Below are positions 17,642 through 32,608 of a stretch of DNA of 44,899 bases, in pieces. The stretch lies in the sequence record KX534341.1. The stretch is one strand, 5' to 3'. The stretch is from Escherichia phage Pride. The notes beneath the pieces were generated by a model. It ran no database searches. It saw nothing but the letters and a program-made list of their open reading frames with translations, and was not told the origin of the DNA. How positions within the stretch are numbered: the stretch's first letter is position 1; every line of letters starts with the position of its first letter. Made by a program: the position numbers and the translations under genes.

Positions 17642-19420
17642 ATGGCAGCGGGCACACTATCCGTAACGAATAACAGCAAGGCGGTTGTAGGGGTCGGCAC
17701 AACGTTTACCTCGTTTAACGCTGGCGACTTCTTAACGCTGGTGGTAGGACAAGTCCCCTACACCGTAGCAATCGCGTCCATTGAAAGCGAAACCGCGCTT
17801 ACGCTGGTGTTGCCGTTCGACGGCCCAACGGCAACCGGCCTCGCGTGGGATGGCGTTAAGCGCGATACCATGTCACTGGCGACGATGGGTGTAACCGTAC
17901 AGGCACAGAAAGCATTGCGCTTGATGATTGCAGATGAAAACAACTGGCGTGCAATCTTCGGCGACGCTGAAGAAATCACCGTGACGCTGCCTAACGGGCA
18001 GGTAATGCAGGGTATGTCATGGGGCTACCTGTCGCAGTTGATGAAACAGATCGACCCCGTTGAGATGCTAAACCTGCAACAACAAGCCGCCGCATCGGAA
18101 GCAGCCGCGCAAGGATACCGCGACCAGGCCGAAGGCATTAAAACCGAGACGGCAGGCATCCGCGACGACACCAGGTTGATTAATGCTGATACGCTGGCGA
18201 TCCGCAACGACACCGATGCCATCAGGACGAATACCAACCAGATTAAATCAGATACGCAGGCCATTAAGGACCAGACGAACCAGATCAAGACGGACACCGG
18301 CGTTATTCGCGACGAAGCCAATACCGCGAAGACGGACGCGCAATCCGCCCGCGATGCTGCGCTGGGATACCGGAACGAGGCCGAACAGTTCAAGAATGAG
18401 ATCGACCCGTCGAAACTTCTGGCAAAGGCCAACAACCTTAGCGACGTTGCCGACCCCGCGGCAGCGCGCGACCACTTAGGCATCGGGCCTGACGACACCC
18501 TTAACCTTGGTGGCCTGGTAACGTCCGGCAGTATCTCCGCGGGCCGCAACACATGGGATGGGTCTAACTGGGGGAGCCAGGGACTTCTCGCCTCATTAGT
18601 GGTCCTATACCCGGACGGAAGCTCAGCCCCAGGCTTATACGTGCGAAAATCCAACGGCGACAGCGGATATGCGGCGGGATGGTTGTATAACGAGAACAGT
18701 ATCAGTTGGGCTACTAACGCGCGTATTGCGGGCTTTCAGTTCCGGTCCCCTAAAGGCGCGATGGGGTATAACCAGCTATGGTCAGAGGCTGTGGTGCGTG
18801 CGGACGACTTCATGGCACAGAATGGCGCGGAAAACTATAAGTCGTTAATCGCGGGGGCCGCTACAACGCAAGGTCACGGATACTCGGGCGGTGTCTCGTT
18901 CGGGATAATGACAACTGGCATAAACAACTGGCCCCGGGCGCAGATCTCGATCGGCACAGCAGACCGTGACGCCGCTGGGAATATGGCTTCGCAGATGCAC
19001 TTCCGCTTTAATGAATATGGGCAGATTTCTTACACAGGGCCACTGGGGACGGGGTCGTTCCAGCAAGTACCTGCGTCGGATCGCAACCTGAAGCATGACA
19101 TTGCCGATGACGCAAGCAGCACCGCCTACGACAATATCAAGGCTTTGCGGTTCCGCACGTTCGTATTCAACAACGATGAACAGGAACGGCAGCGTCGCGG
19201 TATTATTGCGCAGGAAGCGGAAGAAATCGACCCGCTGTATGTGAAGCACCGCGTGTATAACAATCACGAATTAAATGGGCCTCTGGTGCACCAGCTTGAA
19301 CTGGATACGACACCGCTGTTACTCGACACTATGCGAGCGTTGCAGGATACGATTAAGCAGGTGGAGGATTTGAAGGCGGAGATCGCAGCGATGAAGCAGG
19401 CGGAAGAGTTGAAGAAATAA
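17642..19420 (+). CDS. Tail fibre protein with C-terminal intramolecular chaperone (peptidase S74-like) domain
   Basis: ATG 17642 with GAGGA RBS; repetitive segments (IRDDTRLINADTLAIRNDTDAIRTNTNQIKSDTQAIKDQTNQIKTDTGVIRDE); C-terminal DRNLKHDI...RTFVFNND motif typical of self-cleaving fibre chaperone domains. Confidence 0.8.
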   Translation: MAAGTLSVTNNSKAVVGVGTTFTSFNAGDFLTLVVGQVPYTVAIASIESETALTLVLPFDGPTATGLAWDGVKRDTMSLATMGVTVQAQKALRLMIADENNWRAIFGDAEEITVTLPNGQVMQGMSWGYLSQLMKQIDPVEMLNLQQQAAASEAAAQGYRDQAEGIKTETAGIRDDTRLINADTLAIRNDTDAIRTNTNQIKSDTQAIKDQTNQIKTDTGVIRDEANTAKTDAQSARDAALGYRNEAEQFKNEIDPSKLLAKANNLSDVADPAAARDHLGIGPDDTLNLGGLVTSGSISAGRNTWDGSNWGSQGLLASLVVLYPDGSSAPGLYVRKSNGDSGYAAGWLYNENSISWATNARIAGFQFRSPKGAMGYNQLWSEAVVRADDFMAQNGAENYKSLIAGAATTQGHGYSGGVSFGIMTTGINNWPRAQISIGTADRDAAGNMASQMHFRFNEYGQISYTGPLGTGSFQQVPASDRNLKHDIADDASSTAYDNIKALRFRTFVFNNDEQERQRRGIIAQEAEEIDPLYVKHRVYNNHELNGPLVHQLELDTTPLLLDTMRALQDTIKQVEDLKAEIAAMKQAEELKK

Positions 19421-19424
19421 GAGA

Positions 19425-19445
19425 GGGGCCATACAGCCCCTTTTT
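19425..19445. terminator. Bidirectional intrinsic terminator (ggggc-cataca-gcccc-ttttt) between tail fibre gene and convergent minus-strand operon
   Basis: GC stem, T-run on plus strand and T-rich flank on minus strand. Confidence 0.55.
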
Positions 19446-20019
19446 AGTTTGAGTTTTCCCAGTCCATTTTGCGCCGCACCAGCGGGCTTTCGTAATATTC
19501 CTTTCCTTCCACTTCCACCAAAGGCCAGTCGTTCACAATCACGTATGGCTCCGCGATATCCTCAATCACGCCGTGCGCGCTTTGCGGCCCTAACGACACA
19601 CCAACCAGGATAACACCGGCAACGCGACGGGTCAGATATTCGCGAGCGCAACGTGCCTCAACCAGCCCACGACGGATGCCGCTGGTGGCCTTAACCTCGT
19701 AGGTCCATACGGCATCGATCACATGCTCGCGGAAGTCGGGACCGGACTTCACCTTGCGCTTGCCTACCATGATAATATCGCCGCGGTCTATGGTATTGGC
19801 ACTAAACAAGCCGGTACGCATGAGCAAACCTTGCGGTATACAACTGCGCCCGCCTGCTTGCCCTTCAAGGTACATGCCCGCAAACATTTCGCCCAGCACA
19901 CCGACCAGTCGGCTTTGCTTGCACGCGTCGGACTTTAAGCGCCATTGGTCAAACTCGATGCTTGCTATCATTGCCGCCAGGTGGAATTGTTTACCGGATA
20001 TTTCATATTCGCCGTACAT
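19444..20019 (-). CDS. Hypothetical protein with possible PD-(D/E)XK nuclease-like motif
   Basis: 191-aa ORF; GDIIMVG ... DAVWTYEVK resembles a D...E.K catalytic arrangement; weak. Confidence 0.4.
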   Translation of the reverse strand: MYGEYEISGKQFHLAAMIASIEFDQWRLKSDACKQSRLVGVLGEMFAGMYLEGQAGGRSCIPQGLLMRTGLFSANTIDRGDIIMVGKRKVKSGPDFREHVIDAVWTYEVKATSGIRRGLVEARCAREYLTRRVAGVILVGVSLGPQSAHGVIEDIAEPYVIVNDWPLVEVEGKEYYESPLVRRKMDWENSN

Positions 20020-20061
20020 CGTGTGGTCCTCATTGATGCGGGCCGAAGCCCGCGATTAGAA

Positions 20062-20616
20062 TTATTTCAGTGCGCTACGTACCAGTGTTTTTTCCATGTT
20101 GCGGAAGTCTTCCGGCGTCATGAGGATTTTGGACCCATCCTCTCCAGTGAGCACGACCATAGGCTGGACGTCCTGGGCCGCTACGCCGAAATTGGCGGCT
20201 TTGACAGTCTTCCCGAACGAGGCCACCACACCTTCGGCAACGCGCATCGCACTGTTATACGCATTAATCTCGCCATCTAGTCGTACGGACAGGTCTTTGA
20301 GGCTGTCGAATTGTGCTGCCGTTGTGTCGATCTGGATCTCGTCATGCACGGTCATGTACGACTCGCCCAGCAGTGCGGCATATGCTACCAGGTCAACGAT
20401 GTTATCGTCCTGGTGCTTACGGTGCTGGCGTACCAGCTTCAGGCAGATCAAGAAGGTCCAGGCTTCTTGCTCGGTCAGGTCGCGACCGGTAAGCGCGTTA
20501 AACACGTCAGCGATCTGTTTAGCGCTACGCTCTTCTTTCGCGTTGTCATAGCCGTTTTCTTTTCCGCGCTGTTCCATAGTGGTGGCGGCGTTTTTGCAGT
20601 ATTCGTATGCTTTCAT
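20062..20616 (-). CDS. Hypothetical protein
   Basis: ORF; ATG 20616 with AAGGA RBS preferred over 20640; promoter immediately upstream. Confidence 0.6.
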   Translation of the reverse strand: MKAYEYCKNAATTMEQRGKENGYDNAKEERSAKQIADVFNALTGRDLTEQEAWTFLICLKLVRQHRKHQDDNIVDLVAYAALLGESYMTVHDEIQIDTTAAQFDSLKDLSVRLDGEINAYNSAMRVAEGVVASFGKTVKAANFGVAAQDVQPMVVLTGEDGSKILMTPEDFRNMEKTLVRSALK

Positions 20617-20629
20617 TATGTGGTCCTTT

Positions 20630-21145
20630 TTAGGGGCCATATCGCCCCGACGAGTTAACTATAGTGCAACCAATAGGTTGGTTGCAAGTAAATTTTGCAA
20701 CGTTTATCGCATAAATTTTCGAGACCAGATCGCTGCACGCCCGTCGAATGGCCGCGATGTTCTTCGGGCAGTCTTCAATGATGACCAGTTCCGATACGTC
20801 CGCATAGCAGACCATTTTGAACACGGCGCACGCTTTAAACTCTGGCGGCGGGGTATCGTCCAGCATGTGGCGCATAAACAACCGGCCTACGGGGAATACT
20901 TCCAATTGCTCGACGGTAGTCTCCCAGCATTCTCGCTGCCGGTTGGTCAGATACGCGATCTCGAAGCCTTGCTCTTTGTACATGGTCAGCAGCGGCAGCA
21001 TATCCATGTTCAGATCTTCGCGTATATGCGCTTTGTGCCACTTCGCCCAAAAGGTGGATTTTGTTTTTATACCTGGCACCAGGTCGGCACGCGCATCGCT
21101 TGAACCATTAATAACGCCATCAAGATCACAAATCAGTAGTTTCAT
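20630..21145 (-). CDS. HAD-superfamily hydrolase-like protein (putative phosphatase/nucleotidase)
   Basis: N-terminal DxDG motif (ICDLDGVI), downstream T/S (LTNR) and acidic (IIEDCPKN) motifs. Confidence 0.5.
   Translation of the reverse strand: MKLLICDLDGVINGSSDARADLVPGIKTKSTFWAKWHKAHIREDLNMDMLPLLTMYKEQGFEIAYLTNRQRECWETTVEQLEVFPVGRLFMRHMLDDTPPPEFKACAVFKMVCYADVSELVIIEDCPKNIAAIRRACSDLVSKIYAINVAKFTCNQPIGCTIVNSSGRYGP
20658..20687 (-). promoter_or_regulatory. Predicted promoter (TTGCAA-N18-TATAGT) within palindrome TGCAACCAA-TAGG-TTGGTTGCA
   Basis: -35 20682..20687, -10 20658..20663 on minus strand; same architecture as the 1508..1537 promoter. Confidence 0.45.
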
Positions 21146-21366
21146 TTTAATTCCTCAACCAAATCCGAACGAACAACTCTGGCGGAAAACTTGTTACACA
21201 CAAGATGCCAATTTGCGGTTATGACAAGCCAGCCGGTAAGGTCCAGACCCAGGATATATTCTGGACGTGACACTCGCTTCACACGATCGCGGCGCGGATC
21301 GATGTTATAGTCTCTTTGCATTCGGTCTACTACCGCAGGGTCGCGGTCAACGATTAAGATATTCAA
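21142..21366 (-). CDS. Hypothetical protein
   Basis: ORF in operon context. Confidence 0.5.
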   Translation of the reverse strand: MNILIVDRDPAVVDRMQRDYNIDPRRDRVKRVSRPEYILGLDLTGWLVITANWHLVCNKFSARVVRSDLVEELK

Positions 21367-21832
21367 GGAGTTCTCCTTCGCTCATTATTTCAATTTGTGC
21401 GCTGCCGGTTGGTGGCGCTTCGTCAAATATTATCAATTGCTGGCACTTGTTATTGCTCGGCCCGACTTCACCGGTGACAGCGTGTATAAATCTCACCCGC
21501 CAGTCCAGAAGAATTATCATATTGGCAGTCTTCCGGGCCAACTTCGCCCACTTCGTCGACGTGTCCTGATTCAGTAGCATGACAGTCCGGCGACCGTGCG
21601 CTGCGCATTCCACCCACGGCAGCGGGTCGGAATACGGCGGATTGCACCACTTCCACCCTTTCAAATCAGCCCAGTCCACATCAAGCGCGCTATGTTCTGC
21701 TGTGAAGTAACGCGGTAGCAGGTGGTTGGCATCGCTTGCCGCCATATCGTAACGGAATCGGTATTTCCGACGAAGCGGTTTGAATAAAGCTGGCGGCGTG
21801 CGCCAGCTATCTTTTTGCTCACTCTTCTGCAT
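21347..21832 (-). CDS. DNA N6-adenine methyltransferase (phage Dam-like)
   Basis: NPPY catalytic motif (WCNPPYS) and N-terminal SWRTPP region typical of the small phage Dam family as recalled from memory. Confidence 0.65.
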   Translation of the reverse strand: MQKSEQKDSWRTPPALFKPLRRKYRFRYDMAASDANHLLPRYFTAEHSALDVDWADLKGWKWCNPPYSDPLPWVECAAHGRRTVMLLNQDTSTKWAKLARKTANMIILLDWRVRFIHAVTGEVGPSNNKCQQLIIFDEAPPTGSAQIEIMSEGELLEYLNR

Positions 21833-22283
21833 GACCTGGATCTATCGCGTATAAAGGGACTTTATTGCCGGTTTTCATAACGCGCTGGACGCGCTTTGAC
21901 TCCTCGGCGCTCATTGGGCGCATATCAGTGCTATAACCACCGTTTGATGTGTGCCGCCACGCTATCAGCACCAGATCTTTCCGGTCGATCTTAGACTGGC
22001 GGCCCTTCGGTCGCACGTACGCCTCGGCCCGTTTGCAATGCTCGCGCAGACCTTCGGCAGTGATGCGGTTTAGCGCGACGGTGGTTGTGTACCCGGTGCG
22101 CTGCATAATACCCATCAACCCATACAGCAGTTCGAAGCGCTCCTCTAACTCCTTGCGCATCTTTTCCTCGCCTTCATAGCTCGCCAGGTAGGTATCCGCC
22201 AGCGCGTTCGCCCGTTCGACCTGTTCGCGGGCTTCGAGGCATTGCGCGGCCCAGTAATTTTTCTCTTCTTGTAAAATTTTCAT
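21819..22283 (-). CDS. Hypothetical protein
   Basis: ORF with promoter of ATTGGTTGCA class upstream. Confidence 0.6.
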   Translation of the reverse strand: MKILQEEKNYWAAQCLEAREQVERANALADTYLASYEGEEKMRKELEERFELLYGLMGIMQRTGYTTTVALNRITAEGLREHCKRAEAYVRPKGRQSKIDRKDLVLIAWRHTSNGGYSTDMRPMSAEESKRVQRVMKTGNKVPLYAIDPGHAEE

Positions 22284-22330
22284 CGTGTTGTCTCCAGGTA
22301 TTAAAAAGGGCGTCCAAACCGGACACCCTC

Positions 22331-22359
22331 AATATAAGGCAACCAATATGACTATGCAA
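22331..22359 (-). promoter_or_regulatory. Predicted promoter (TTGCAT-N17-TATATT) with two tandem ATTGGTTGC motifs
   Basis: -35 22354..22359, -10 22331..22336 on minus strand. Confidence 0.45.
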
Positions 22360-22364
22360 CCAAT

Positions 22365-22688
22365 TTACGCATAAAAGTTCGGGTCGCGTGCAACGTCTAC
22401 CAGGTAAAGGTTGCTTATGCGGTTGCCGTAGTGCCCTGGAGTGCGCTGGCGGCACACAACGGCGAAGCCTGGAGGGATTGTATTGCCCGTCTCAATAATC
22501 CACGCCACGCGTGCGCCAGACAGCGTCTTGCCGTTGTATTCGATACGTGTTCCGCCATCGGCGGTATTGAGGTTGCCAATTTTGCAGCCGGTGGACTTCA
22601 GACGAATGACGCCGGTTTTGCTGTCGTAGGAGAATAACTGGTTAGTCATTGCAACCGAAAAATCGATGGCTTCGAATGAAGTATTCAT
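22365..22688 (-). CDS. Hypothetical protein
   Basis: ORF in operon context. Confidence 0.6.
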   Translation of the reverse strand: MNTSFEAIDFSVAMTNQLFSYDSKTGVIRLKSTGCKIGNLNTADGGTRIEYNGKTLSGARVAWIIETGNTIPPGFAVVCRQRTPGHYGNRISNLYLVDVARDPNFYA

Positions 22689-23380
22689 TTTAAATTTTCC
22701 TCGTTAACCGCTATCGCGAAGCCGCGCGGAGTGAGCGACCGGATTAATTTTGTGCGGGCTGATTTGCCTCCGAGGCGACTATACTGCTTCGAGTACCCTT
22801 TTTCAACGAAAACAGGTCTCTTCTCTGGCATACGGAAGCCGTTGCCGGTCCATAAGCAGGTCAGCTTCGGATATGAATCGCGGGCGTTGATGTATTCCGG
22901 GAAGAGCGGGTGTACGTCATCCTCCGGCAGATATCCCCCATACTCCCACGGGTCGAATGAGTGATCCGGCTTGCGCCACTGGGTGGAAAGCACACTGCGC
23001 GGATTCTCAATCATATACGGCACTTCGAAGAAGTCACCCAGGTACGCGGCGATCTTCGCGGTGCGCACCGCCTTAAGCTGGAAGGCCGGGTCGCGGGCGC
23101 GTTTGCGCGGGAAAGCTGGCGCACCGCTCACCGCCAGATCAGTACACGGCGGGAATGCGTAGATGATATCTGGCGTACCGAAATCGCCATTCATCGCGCG
23201 GTCTACAAAGTCCAGATCAATAAACTCATTGCGATATCGGATCCCGCGACCATAAATCCGGTAGTCCAGGTACGACCCGTGATCGGCTTCGGAGTAGTTA
23301 AAACAGTAGCACTTATGCCCCATCTCGGCAGCACGCTCAATCATCAAGCCGCTGCCGTCAAACAATGACCAGATTATCAT
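22685..23380 (-). CDS. DNA cytosine-5 methyltransferase-like protein (small)
   Basis: Motif I-like LFDGSG, motif IV-like FPPC..AVSGA, motif VI-like IENP. Confidence 0.6.
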   Translation of the reverse strand: MIIWSLFDGSGLMIERAAEMGHKCYCFNYSEADHGSYLDYRIYGRGIRYRNEFIDLDFVDRAMNGDFGTPDIIYAFPPCTDLAVSGAPAFPRKRARDPAFQLKAVRTAKIAAYLGDFFEVPYMIENPRSVLSTQWRKPDHSFDPWEYGGYLPEDDVHPLFPEYINARDSYPKLTCLWTGNGFRMPEKRPVFVEKGYSKQYSRLGGKSARTKLIRSLTPRGFAIAVNEENLK

Positions 23381-24801
23381 TTGCGCGCCTTCTTAGCTTT
23401 CATGTATTCCATCAAGTCGTCCTGAATATCCCGCTTACTGTCGCGACGCTCGGCGACCAGTTCGTCCAGTGTTCCGCGCGCCTGGATAATGTAGACGAAT
23501 ACCGGTCGAGGGTGCCCGGCCTGCATCTGGCGAACCGGCCCGATACGCTCAACGATCTGCGAAAAGTGCTCAAAGTTCCAGGTATCGGAGAAGATTGCCA
23601 GGTGATGACCGCCGTCCTGCAAGTTAAGGCCGTGGCCTGCCGATGCCGGGTGTGCAAACATGATGGGGATCTCACCCCTGTTCCACGCTTCCATATCCTT
23701 ATTGCCCTGCTTACCTTTACCCAACGCAACGCCGTGCGGAAATTTCTTCTTAAGTCGTGCCAGGTCATGCTTATACTGATACGCAACGAGCAACGGCGCG
23801 CCGTTCAACTCCTCTACGATACTCTCCAGCGCGTCCAGCTTCGCGTCGTGAATCTTCACCCACTCGTCGGTCCGTTCGCCGTCTTCGTCCACCTTATACA
23901 CGGCCCCGGATGCAAGCTGAAGGCACTTAATTGTCTTCGACGCCGCGTTCGCCGCTTCCACTGTTCCGCTTTCCAGTTCTGCAAATAGCTCGCTTTCAAA
24001 CTGGTCATAAATCTTACGCGCTTTCTTCGGCAGGTCCACAACAACCGGCGTATAGATTGGCTTGTCGCACCCGAAGTATTCCGCCGCGTCAACGGTGAGG
24101 GATACATCTGACAGACGTTGTTGTATCTCTTTCTCGGAGTTCTTTAGCGGAGCGTGCTGCATAGTGAAGCTGCTAGGCTTAACAGGCTTGCTAATGAACC
24201 AGCGGTCGGTAAATGCCTTATAGCTACTGCCGAGGCGTTCGCCACCGTCGACAAACCACGTCTGACCCCATAAGTCTTTTAGCCCGTTTGGCGCTGGTGT
24301 GCCGGTAAGGTTAATCCAGCGCTTGACGTGTTTATGTGCAATCGCTGCCAGTGCGCGGGCGCGCTTGCTCCCCTGCTTGCTACGATAGCCTTTCAGCTTA
24401 GTCGATTCATCGGCAACAACGACCGTAAAGGGCCACGCATCGCCGTAATAGTCGACCAGCCACTCAACCACATCATAGTTAACACAAACCACGTTAGCGT
24501 CGCTCTCCAGCGCTGCAATGCGGTCCTTCTCTGGACCAGTGCCGTCTACTACCAGCAGGGCTGGGAAGCGCCATTTCTCCTGCTCCGGGGGCCAGGTGCC
24601 GGACGCAACGCGCAGCGGGGCCAGCACCAGTACGCGGTCCTCCTGGTTGGACAGGATACCCGTCTGGAACATTTTATTCAGCGCCCACATTGTCGCGCCG
24701 GTTTTACCCGATCCCATTGTCGCCCATATATTACATCGCTTATGCTTGAGGATGAACGCGGTTATCAACTTCTGATATTCGCGGCGTCGGAATCGTGCCA
24801 T
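23377..24801 (-). CDS. SNF2-family DNA helicase/ATPase
   Basis: Walker A (GSGKTG), DExx (VVADESTKLK), LTGTP motif, C-terminal helicase domain; ATG 24801 chosen. Confidence 0.8.
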   Translation of the reverse strand: MARFRRREYQKLITAFILKHKRCNIWATMGSGKTGATMWALNKMFQTGILSNQEDRVLVLAPLRVASGTWPPEQEKWRFPALLVVDGTGPEKDRIAALESDANVVCVNYDVVEWLVDYYGDAWPFTVVVADESTKLKGYRSKQGSKRARALAAIAHKHVKRWINLTGTPAPNGLKDLWGQTWFVDGGERLGSSYKAFTDRWFISKPVKPSSFTMQHAPLKNSEKEIQQRLSDVSLTVDAAEYFGCDKPIYTPVVVDLPKKARKIYDQFESELFAELESGTVEAANAASKTIKCLQLASGAVYKVDEDGERTDEWVKIHDAKLDALESIVEELNGAPLLVAYQYKHDLARLKKKFPHGVALGKGKQGNKDMEAWNRGEIPIMFAHPASAGHGLNLQDGGHHLAIFSDTWNFEHFSQIVERIGPVRQMQAGHPRPVFVYIIQARGTLDELVAERRDSKRDIQDDLMEYMKAKKARK

Positions 24802-24805
24802 ATCT

Positions 24806-25039
24806 TTATTCCGCCTTTTTCCAGACTTCAGTTTCACTGTTCCAGTTCCTTTTTGTGGCGTCGTAGTTGGTGGCGTGTCCGACGTGGACACCGGTAGCCC
24901 GGAAGCTCTTAAATTTTTGCCAGCACACCGTCAACGGCAGCGGATCATTCATGCCTGCGATAAACCATACGCGATCGCCCGGTTTACATTCGCCCAGCTT
25001 GGTGAGTCGGTAATGTTCTTTCATCGTCATGTCTCCCAA
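24806..25039 (-). CDS. Hypothetical protein
   Basis: ORF in operon context. Confidence 0.5.
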   Translation of the reverse strand: MGDMTMKEHYRLTKLGECKPGDRVWFIAGMNDPLPLTVCWQKFKSFRATGVHVGHATNYDATKRNWNSETEVWKKAE

Positions 25040-25067: not shown

Positions 25068-25241
25068 TTATTTTTGTTCTGCACGGTAGCGGCGCTGCCG
25101 TTCGCGCTCTTTTTTATTGCGGCACGATTTGCACTCTGCCCGATACCCGTCTGGACTTCGCGCAGTCTTACCGGTGTATTTGTGGAACTGGGATAGCGGC
25201 TTTACACAGCCGCAATTACTACAACGTTTTTCTTCAATCAT
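25068..25241 (-). CDS. Small zinc-ribbon protein (CxxC...CxxC plus basic tail)
   Basis: ATG 25241 with GAGGA RBS; CSNCGC...CKSCRNKK pattern resembles the N-terminal zinc-ribbon repeats of the neighbouring HNH protein. Confidence 0.5.
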   Translation of the reverse strand: MIEEKRCSNCGCVKPLSQFHKYTGKTARSPDGYRAECKSCRNKKERERQRRYRAEQK

Positions 25242-25272
25242 CTCTAAAATCCTCGATATGGCTAACCGGCAC

Positions 25273-25301
25273 ACTATACCGCTATGCGACCAATTCAGCA
25301 A
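25273..25301 (-). promoter_or_regulatory. Predicted promoter (TTGCTG-N17-TATAGT) with ATTGGTTGC / ATTGGTCGC motifs
   Basis: -35 25296..25301, -10 25273..25278 on minus strand. Confidence 0.45.
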
Positions 25302-25560
25302 CCAATAAATCACAGTCGGCTATGCTGTCGATAACGCGAACGTCCGCACCGCGGCGGGCCATTCGCTCATGTTCTCGTACCTGGTGCGGCTTAGGTTTAC
25401 CGCCTGGGCGCTTCACTTCGACGAAAACTATCTTGCCGTTGATGATGATAATCAGATCGGGCGCGCCTGCGCGCCCCTCCCACGCCACTTTACGGCAGAA
25501 TCCGCCAACCTCTTTAACCCGTTTCATAAGGTGACGCTGCACCTTGCCTTCTGGTGTCAT
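25282..25560 (-). CDS. VRR-NUC domain nuclease
   Basis: PDLIIII..GKIVFVEVKRPGGKPKPHQ motif; ATG 25560 with AAGGAAAAG RBS. Confidence 0.65.
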   Translation of the reverse strand: MTPEGKVQRHLMKRVKEVGGFCRKVAWEGRAGAPDLIIIINGKIVFVEVKRPGGKPKPHQVREHERMARRGADVRVIDSIADCDLLVAELVA

Positions 25561-32462: not shown

Positions 32463-32492
32463 ATGATAGATTGGTTGCAGGATGGGTGTCAA
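32463..32492 (-). promoter_or_regulatory. Predicted leftward early promoter (TTGACA-N18-TATCAT) with GCAACCAAT motif in spacer
   Basis: -35 at 32487..32492 and -10 at 32463..32468 on minus strand; upstream of minus operon beginning at 32266. Confidence 0.5.
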
Positions 32493-32503
32493 CAACTAAT
32501 TTC

Positions 32504-32537
32504 AAAAAAAAAGCGCCGAGGCAAAATGCGACGGCGC
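32504..32537 (-). terminator. Intrinsic terminator on minus strand (gcgccg-loop-cggcgc followed by U9)
   Basis: 6-bp GC stem with 13-nt loop and A9 run on plus strand (T-run on minus). Confidence 0.55.
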
Positions 32538-32561
32538 TAACCAATAAGAGACAATGAGACG
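32504..32561 (-). ncRNA. Candidate small RNA (~55-60 nt) transcribed leftward from a TTGAAA-N16-TAATAA promoter and ended by the 32504..32537 terminator
   Basis: Promoter elements on minus strand at 32591..32596 (-35) and 32569..32574 (-10); no ORF; terminator immediately downstream. Confidence 0.2.
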
Positions 32562-32608
32562 GGAATTATTATTACACGCGTGCGCGCCCGTTTCAATATC
32601 CAAAGGAT

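Follow-up and report, generated by a model that had tools for sequence, protein, structure and literature searches.

Two orphan DNA methyltransferase genes and a separate phosphatase gene at the distal end of the replication module of Escherichia phage Pride

Results and discussion

We analyzed a gene cluster of Escherichia phage Pride (KX534341.1) that lies at positions 20,630 to 23,380 of a 44,899-nucleotide stretch of its DNA, the whole of which is referred to here as the window. The cluster is predicted to encode a small C5-cytosine DNA methyltransferase, a Dam-family N6-adenine DNA methyltransferase, and a HAD phosphatase. Taken as a whole, it is best explained as a set of independent accessory genes at the distal end of the leftward replication module of a Dhillonvirus, consisting of two orphan methyltransferases and a separate HAD protein, and we consider this explanation highly probable. 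The cluster is already known and ordinary, as its genes have been annotated and a close relative of the C5 enzyme has been tested. RefSeq labels two genes of the region as “DNA methyltransferase”, and the labels in other records include “putative C-5 cytosine-specific DNA methylase”, “DNA N-6-adenine-methyltransferase”, and “putative nucleotidase / polynucleotide kinase”. The region from 19400 to 24900 is 100% identical to that of Escherichia phages Lust (KX534338) and Gluttony (NC_031113) and 91-94% identical to that of many other members of the genus Dhillonvirus, and 160 phage records match it.

The leftward replication module at whose distal end the cluster lies spans 13 kb and encodes a DUF2800 nuclease, an Enc34-type SSB, PolA, a VRR-NUC protein, and an SNF2 helicase, as identified by Pfam scans. 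The module is bounded by promoter-like sites near 32463-32596 and by a bidirectional terminator at 19420-19445. A sequence-only reading of the window had proposed a Dam-like methyltransferase, a small C5 methyltransferase, and a HAD-like hydrolase, and all three genes are present where it placed them, on the minus strand:

22685..23380, minus strand: predicted small C5-cytosine DNA methyltransferase, 231 aa (motifs, PHROG 757, fold)
21347..21832, minus strand: Dam-family N6-adenine DNA methyltransferase, 161 aa (PF05869)
20630..21145, minus strand: predicted stand-alone HAD phosphatase, 171 aa (HAD motifs, family profile, PHROG 415)

The motifs on which that reading relied were also found, with NPPY at residues 64-67 of the 161-aa protein and PPC and ENP at residues 77-79 and 125-127 of the 231-aa protein. 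The two methyltransferases do belong to different classes, N6-adenine (by PF05869) and C5-cytosine (by motifs, PHROG 757, and fold).

The small C5 methyltransferase

The 231-aa protein contains motif I (F7-D-G-S-G11), the P77-P-C79 motif with the catalytic pair P78-C79, and motif VI (E125-N-P127). In an alignment of 56 diverse members of its family, C79, E125, P127, and K172 are unvarying. The protein matches PHROG 757 (“DNA methyltransferase”) with an E-value of 5e-82, but Pfam, NCBIfam, PADLOC, and PDB sequence searches all returned no match. Neither the Pride protein nor the Dcm protein of phage KarlJaspers matched the C5 methyltransferase family PF00145 at E<=0.1, while two other members of the family (P0023 and P0026) pass the PF00145 cutoff of 22 bits with scores of 28.5 and 24.7 bits, covering motifs I-IV. 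As the score of the Pride protein itself lies under the gathering cutoff, its membership of PF00145 is assigned through transitive homology together with the fold. A profile of the 56 family members searched against the PDB gave insignificant matches only (M.HaeIII, E 0.31; DNMT2, E 0.85). The C5 identity was settled by structure prediction and a fold search, which recovered a class I S-adenosylmethionine (SAM) methyltransferase fold of the C5 type. On this modeled structure, the 231-aa protein is assigned as a C5-cytosine DNA methyltransferase of a phage-specific family of about 230 aa.

This family is large, with 2864 matches at 90% clustering and 822 clusters at 50% identity, nearly all of them 210-260 aa in length. 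Its members occur in 1511 phage records that include Drexlerviridae, Dhillonvirus, Jerseyvirus, Kagunavirus, Webervirus, Vequintavirinae, and T4-like phages. Compared with canonical C5 enzymes (PF00145: M.HhaI, M.HaeIII, and the catalytic domain of DNMT3A/B), the Pride protein is about 100 residues shorter than the bacterial type II enzymes, and a short insert of about 75 residues (roughly residues 140-213) stands where a large target-recognition domain would be expected. The target-recognition domain of the canonical enzymes is variable, whereas the insert of the small family is as conserved as its catalytic core; across residues 140-185, the mean frequency of the most common residue is 0.61, compared with 0.55-0.58 in the core blocks. 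The small enzyme shares its reaction chemistry with E. coli Dcm, which methylates CCWGG, and several phage annotations use the label “Dcm”. No similarity to E. coli Dcm that would include its target-recognition domain was found, and the small C5 enzyme is “Dcm-like” in name only.

A relative with experimental data is available. The Pride protein is 54% identical over its full length (E 2e-86) to the “Dcm-like” protein of phage KarlJaspers (Bas06), and phage K42 is 95% identical to KarlJaspers. The 711-bp dcm gene of K42 has been identified as the trigger of retron Ec86/Eco1, and phage mutants that escape the retron carry mutations in dcm (bioRxiv 10.1101/2023.08.16.553469). In the same study, expression of K42 dcm increased the level of 5-methylcytosine in the multicopy single-stranded DNA (msDNA) of the retron, as measured by liquid chromatography-mass spectrometry, and a C82A/E128A/K175A/K176A mutant was inactive (bioRxiv 10.1101/2023.08.16.553469). 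In the alignment, the K42 residues C82, E128, and K175 correspond to C79, E125, and K172 of the Pride protein, and K42 K176 corresponds to Leu173. The two enzymes are therefore members of the same family of about 230 aa in which Pride has kept the catalytic cysteine, the glutamate, and the first lysine. They differ in phage group (Dhillonvirus for Pride, Drexlerviridae for K42 and KarlJaspers) and in neighborhood, as the Pride gene overlaps genes for an SNF2 helicase and an HNH-like protein.

As residues 140-185 are conserved to the same degree as the core, the pattern hints at a single target, and the alignment suggests that the C5 family has one target in common. A further step would be to propose that the family is not a CCWGG-specific “Dcm” at all and that the whole of it shares one short or relaxed target, as in DNMT3; a short target region conserved like the catalytic core may point in this direction, and we regard the proposal as tentative and rather doubtful. 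If it were true, the enzyme would provide broad, low-level protection, which would explain both its reported toxicity and its use as an infection signal by retron Eco1.

The Dam-like methyltransferase

The 161-aa protein is a strong match to Pfam family PF05869 (121.4 bits against a cutoff of 28.1, E 4e-35), with the catalytic motif N64-P-P-Y67. It also matches PHROG 111 (E 6.5e-55) and the PADLOC orphan methyltransferase model (E 4.5e-11). Besides the Pfam match, it resembles the phage Dam family PF05869/TIGR01712 (small Dam enzymes of the T1, HP1, and VT2 type) in being a small orphan enzyme with an NPPY motif. The Dam-like enzyme of the Drexlerviridae, represented by KarlJaspers, is longer at 233 aa and 30% identical to that of Pride. 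Characterized members of the PF05869 family are specific for GATC, and by analogy GATC is most likely the target of the Pride enzyme as well; a search of the available literature on T1 Dam and GATC returned nothing. We also considered whether the Dam-like protein could be a non-specific adenine methyltransferase of the Hia5 type. The Hia5 type has classical Dam/DpnM enzymes among its relatives (PMC3299994), but no link between this group and PF05869 was found or tested for, and this reading was dropped.

The HAD phosphatase

The sequence-only reading was also borne out for the HAD-like hydrolase, which has HAD motifs and profile-level similarity to HAD phosphatases of solved structure. Across 14 homologs, D7, D9, R69, K104, and D125 are unvarying and T/S67 is conserved, and the family profile matches Pnkp1 (4xrp, 2.5e-9), a class C acid phosphatase (2i33, 1.8e-4), and the phosphatase domain of T4 polynucleotide kinase (PNK; 5uj0, 1.2e-3, and also 1ltq) in the PDB. 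The protein matches PHROG 415 (E 1.8e-37). When searched alone, it scores 23.8 bits against Pfam PF03767, under the cutoff of 27, and its homologs match the Pfam families HAD_PNKP and Acid_phosphat_B. It thus shares HAD fold motifs and profile similarity with the PNK phosphatases (T4 Pnk, Pnkp1) and the class B/C acid phosphatases, but unlike T4 Pnk and Pnkp1 it has no kinase domain, as Pfam and NCBIfam scans of the protein revealed no P-loop domain. We therefore rejected the label “polynucleotide kinase” that is attached to it in PHROG 415 and GenBank, as this 171-aa protein comprises a HAD phosphatase only. Judged by these motifs and profiles, the protein is assigned as a stand-alone phosphomonoesterase of the PNKP-phosphatase or class B-C acid-phosphatase type, and its activity is most likely the healing of 3'-phosphate ends or the dephosphorylation of nucleotides.

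The end of the HAD gene has a distinct feature of its own. A hairpin with a perfect 9-bp stem lies at 20665-20686, and its 4-nt loop, which in relatives reads TAGG on the coding strand and holds the stop codon, is inverted in Pride (CCTA). As the inverted loop removes the stop codon, the Pride protein has a 15-aa C-terminal extension (171 versus 156 aa). A template switch that inverted a quasi-palindrome is the probable origin of the change.

Protection from restriction, other roles, or a modification pathway

Anti-restriction is the classical role of orphan phage methyltransferases, and methylation protects only from enzymes whose sites overlap the methylated motif. Under the explanation that we favor, neither methyltransferase would have a partner endonuclease. 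The PF05869 Dam-type enzyme would produce N6-methyladenine, most likely at GATC, while the C5 enzyme, with a compact DNMT3-like core in which Cys79 would act as the nucleophile and Glu125 would protonate N3, would place 5-methylcytosine on replicating phage DNA, an activity predicted from the 54%-identical homolog. Jointly, the two enzymes may pre-methylate progeny DNA and confer a narrow immunity, limited to restriction enzymes with sites that overlap a methylated motif, at the cost that retron Ec86/Eco1 could sense the C5 enzyme. The HAD protein would act separately, outside base modification, most likely on 3'-phosphate ends or nucleotides. Self-protection against restriction, which the sequence-only reading had suggested for the two methyltransferases, is plausible and at best narrow. 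The genome of Pride shows no depletion of GATC or CCWGG, which is expected if such sites are harmless or protected.

Several points weigh against this explanation. Beyond the fold, the small C5 enzyme has no detectable sequence similarity to Dcm-type proteins, and the Dam-like protein scores 84.8 bits against the NCBIfam model TIGR01712, under its equivalog cutoff of 97.05. The CCWGG target of the K42 enzyme was assumed from E. coli Dcm and is backed only by mutants of the msDNA stem-loop (bioRxiv 10.1101/2023.08.16.553469). The sensitivity of Dhillonvirus phages, which carry these genes, to type I and II restriction-modification systems was reported in the BASEL study to be markedly above that of phages with 7-deazaguanine (PMC8594841), so any anti-restriction benefit is not a general one, and our literature search found no methylation data for Pride or any Dhillonvirus. 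The related Drexlerviridae of that collection show no simple link between methyltransferase genes and resistance to restriction (PMC8594841).

The same sensitivity of the Dhillonviruses could mean that the methyltransferases are active but serve mainly in something other than anti-restriction, such as full GATC methylation during fast replication (avoiding nicking by MutH), marking of DNA for packaging or replication control, regulation of transcription, or persistence as mobile, moron-like genes. In E. coli hosts, GATC and CCWGG carry methylation already, making protection from common host systems redundant, and in five of the eight lineages examined the C5 gene adjoins helicase, polymerase, or primase genes, a placement that points to expression together with replication. 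Against such roles, the shielding of phage DNA from cognate endonucleases by orphan methyltransferases is an established precedent, as in the lactococcal 936-type phages (PMC4190342), and the broad horizontal spread of the C5 family over unrelated phages fits a defense-evasion gene. We regard a main role of this kind as unlikely. It is far less probable still that the group which the C5-like protein transfers is not methyl (carboxymethyl from Cx-SAM, used by phage CmoX, would be an example) or that its main substrate is single-stranded DNA or RNA and not duplex phage DNA.

We also weighed whether the HAD protein and the DUF6378 protein encoded at 20062-20616 act with the methyltransferases in a coordinated nucleotide or DNA hypermodification pathway, as the sequence-only reading had envisaged. 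The genes are co-oriented and tightly packed, and Pride does encode an Nmad5 “nucleotide modification associated” protein, a family that in M6-like phages is found within a thymidine hypermodification cassette (PMC9476957), but it lies 19 kb away. Pfam scans of the open reading frames (ORFs) between 19.4 and 40.7 kb revealed no pyrimidine hydroxymethylase, nucleotide kinase, aGPT-Pplase, glycosyltransferase, TET, DpdA/Que, CmoA/CmoY, 5-HMUDK, JBP, QueCDE, or Mom protein, and in the remaining ORFs the scans recovered only replication, lysis, and packaging functions. Nor do the genes co-occur in other lineages, as HAD and DUF6378 genes stand beside the C5 gene in none of eight other phage contexts. 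KarlJaspers carries its Dam, Dcm, and HAD genes on different strands and at distances of 5-7 kb from one another, and no PF05869, HAD, or DUF6378 gene neighbors the C5 gene in Jerseyvirus, Tlsvirus, Vequintavirus, or any of four metagenomic or T4-like contexts; in these seven the C5 gene adjoins helicase, polymerase, or primase genes or lies among small early genes. With the HAD protein nearest to end-healing and acid phosphatases and the DUF6378 protein offering no functional link, the idea of a shared pathway found no support, and we consider it very improbable. A functional link between the C5 enzyme and the SNF2 helicase, similar to that in DNMT5, was likewise rejected as unsupported; a helicase gene does recur beside the C5 gene, but the helicase families vary (SNF2, DnaB, primase-helicase) and the adjacency is missing in two contexts.

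The Nmad5 gene (PF18757, 184 bits) occupies 714-1523 on the minus strand, within a head module that is otherwise encoded on the plus strand, and Dhillonviruses have conserved it. It is the sole hint of further DNA modification in the Pride genome. A single Lys-to-Glu change at the Nmad5 locus has been reported to let these phages escape the Tmn defense system (PMC11846954).

Genomic neighborhood of the cluster

The other features of the region are as follows:

23377..24891, minus strand: SNF2-family helicase (PF00176, E 5e-11; PHROG 62, E 6.5e-157), whose stop overlaps the start of the C5 methyltransferase gene
22365..22688, minus strand: HNH_3-like protein, 107 aa (PHROG 99, E 2.3e-16), overlapping the stop of the C5 methyltransferase gene by 4 nt
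21819..22283, minus strand: 154-aa protein labeled “DNA ligase”, with no Pfam, NCBIfam, or PDB relative
21142..21366, minus strand: 74-aa protein (PHROG 10685) whose TTG start codon is preceded by the Shine-Dalgarno sequence AAGGAG
20062..20616, minus strand (alternative start 20640): DUF6378 protein (PF19905)
19444..20019, minus strand: 191-aa protein, the last gene of the leftward unit, matching PHROG 10558 only
19420..19445, both strands: GC-rich hairpin forming a bidirectional terminator, with terminator-like sites on both strands, that ends the tail-fiber gene and the leftward unit

All genes of the cluster lie on the minus strand, and in the ORF listing five of their junctions overlap by 4-20 nt. 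This co-orientation and overlap are compatible with a single transcription unit, and the arrangement fits one. A promoter scan returned 12 sites compared with 10.8 expected from shuffled sequence, which is no excess, and as the scan did no better than on shuffled sequence, no internal promoters were assigned.

The protein at 20062-20616, which the sequence-only reading had listed as uncharacterized, is real, and its likely start is 20616, as in that reading, because a AAGAAGGA Shine-Dalgarno sequence precedes this ATG and homologs begin there. The protein matches PF19905 (DUF6378) with 38.9 bits against a cutoff of 27.1, and 21 of 22 homologs matched DUF6378 alone when each was scanned against Pfam. 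In an alignment, the N-terminal domain of about 90 aa is helical and conserved, while the C-terminal half varies. The family profile has no match in the PDB, the AlphaFold (AF2) model is poor, with a predicted local distance difference test (pLDDT) score of 52, and a literature search found nothing on the function of DUF6378. Pfam and NCBIfam scans of the 191-aa protein at 19444-20019 also gave no match. In the 107-aa protein, HNH_3 was matched in Pfam only with an E-value of 0.075, and the protein is probably a degenerate homing endonuclease or a DNA-binding remnant. We rejected the “DNA ligase” label that RefSeq and PHROG 10530 give to the 154-aa protein, as it has no match in Pfam, NCBIfam, or the PDB and no KxDG motif; the remark of RefSeq itself on this gene is “Possible DNA ligase but no evidence”. 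For neither the DUF6378 protein nor the small ORFs did the searches point to a role.

Other signatures of restriction evasion

The plus strand of the whole window contains 25 copies of the EcoP15I-type site CAGCAG but only one of CTGCTG. This bias is present in all three gene blocks irrespective of the coding strand (14/0, 6/1, and 5/0), and among 996 hexamer pairs none has a stronger strand asymmetry (binomial p 8e-7). A comparable asymmetry of 34/1 is found in the T1-like phage KarlJaspers. The orientation of these sites looks like a T7-style evasion of type III restriction. The window also contains no EcoKI site (AACN6GTGC) in either orientation, compared with about six predicted from composition, and three GAATTC sites compared with about eight expected. 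Both deficits represent site avoidance that would act alongside methylation. A small Cys-rich ORF at 25068-25313 on the minus strand is annotated in relatives as a “Lar-like restriction alleviation protein”, and Pfam and PADLOC returned no match to it here; if the label is right, this ORF would be a further anti-restriction element in the same module.

Implications

The practical value of these results lies in the clean-up of annotations, and the current understanding of such clusters is unchanged. The small C5 methyltransferase slips past the models of Pfam, NCBIfam, and PADLOC and is often left as “hypothetical”, while the name “Dcm” implies a CCWGG specificity that goes beyond the evidence. 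As the small C5 methyltransferase family modifies phage DNA and triggers retron defense, knowledge of its real target would aid the prediction of host range for therapeutic coliphages.

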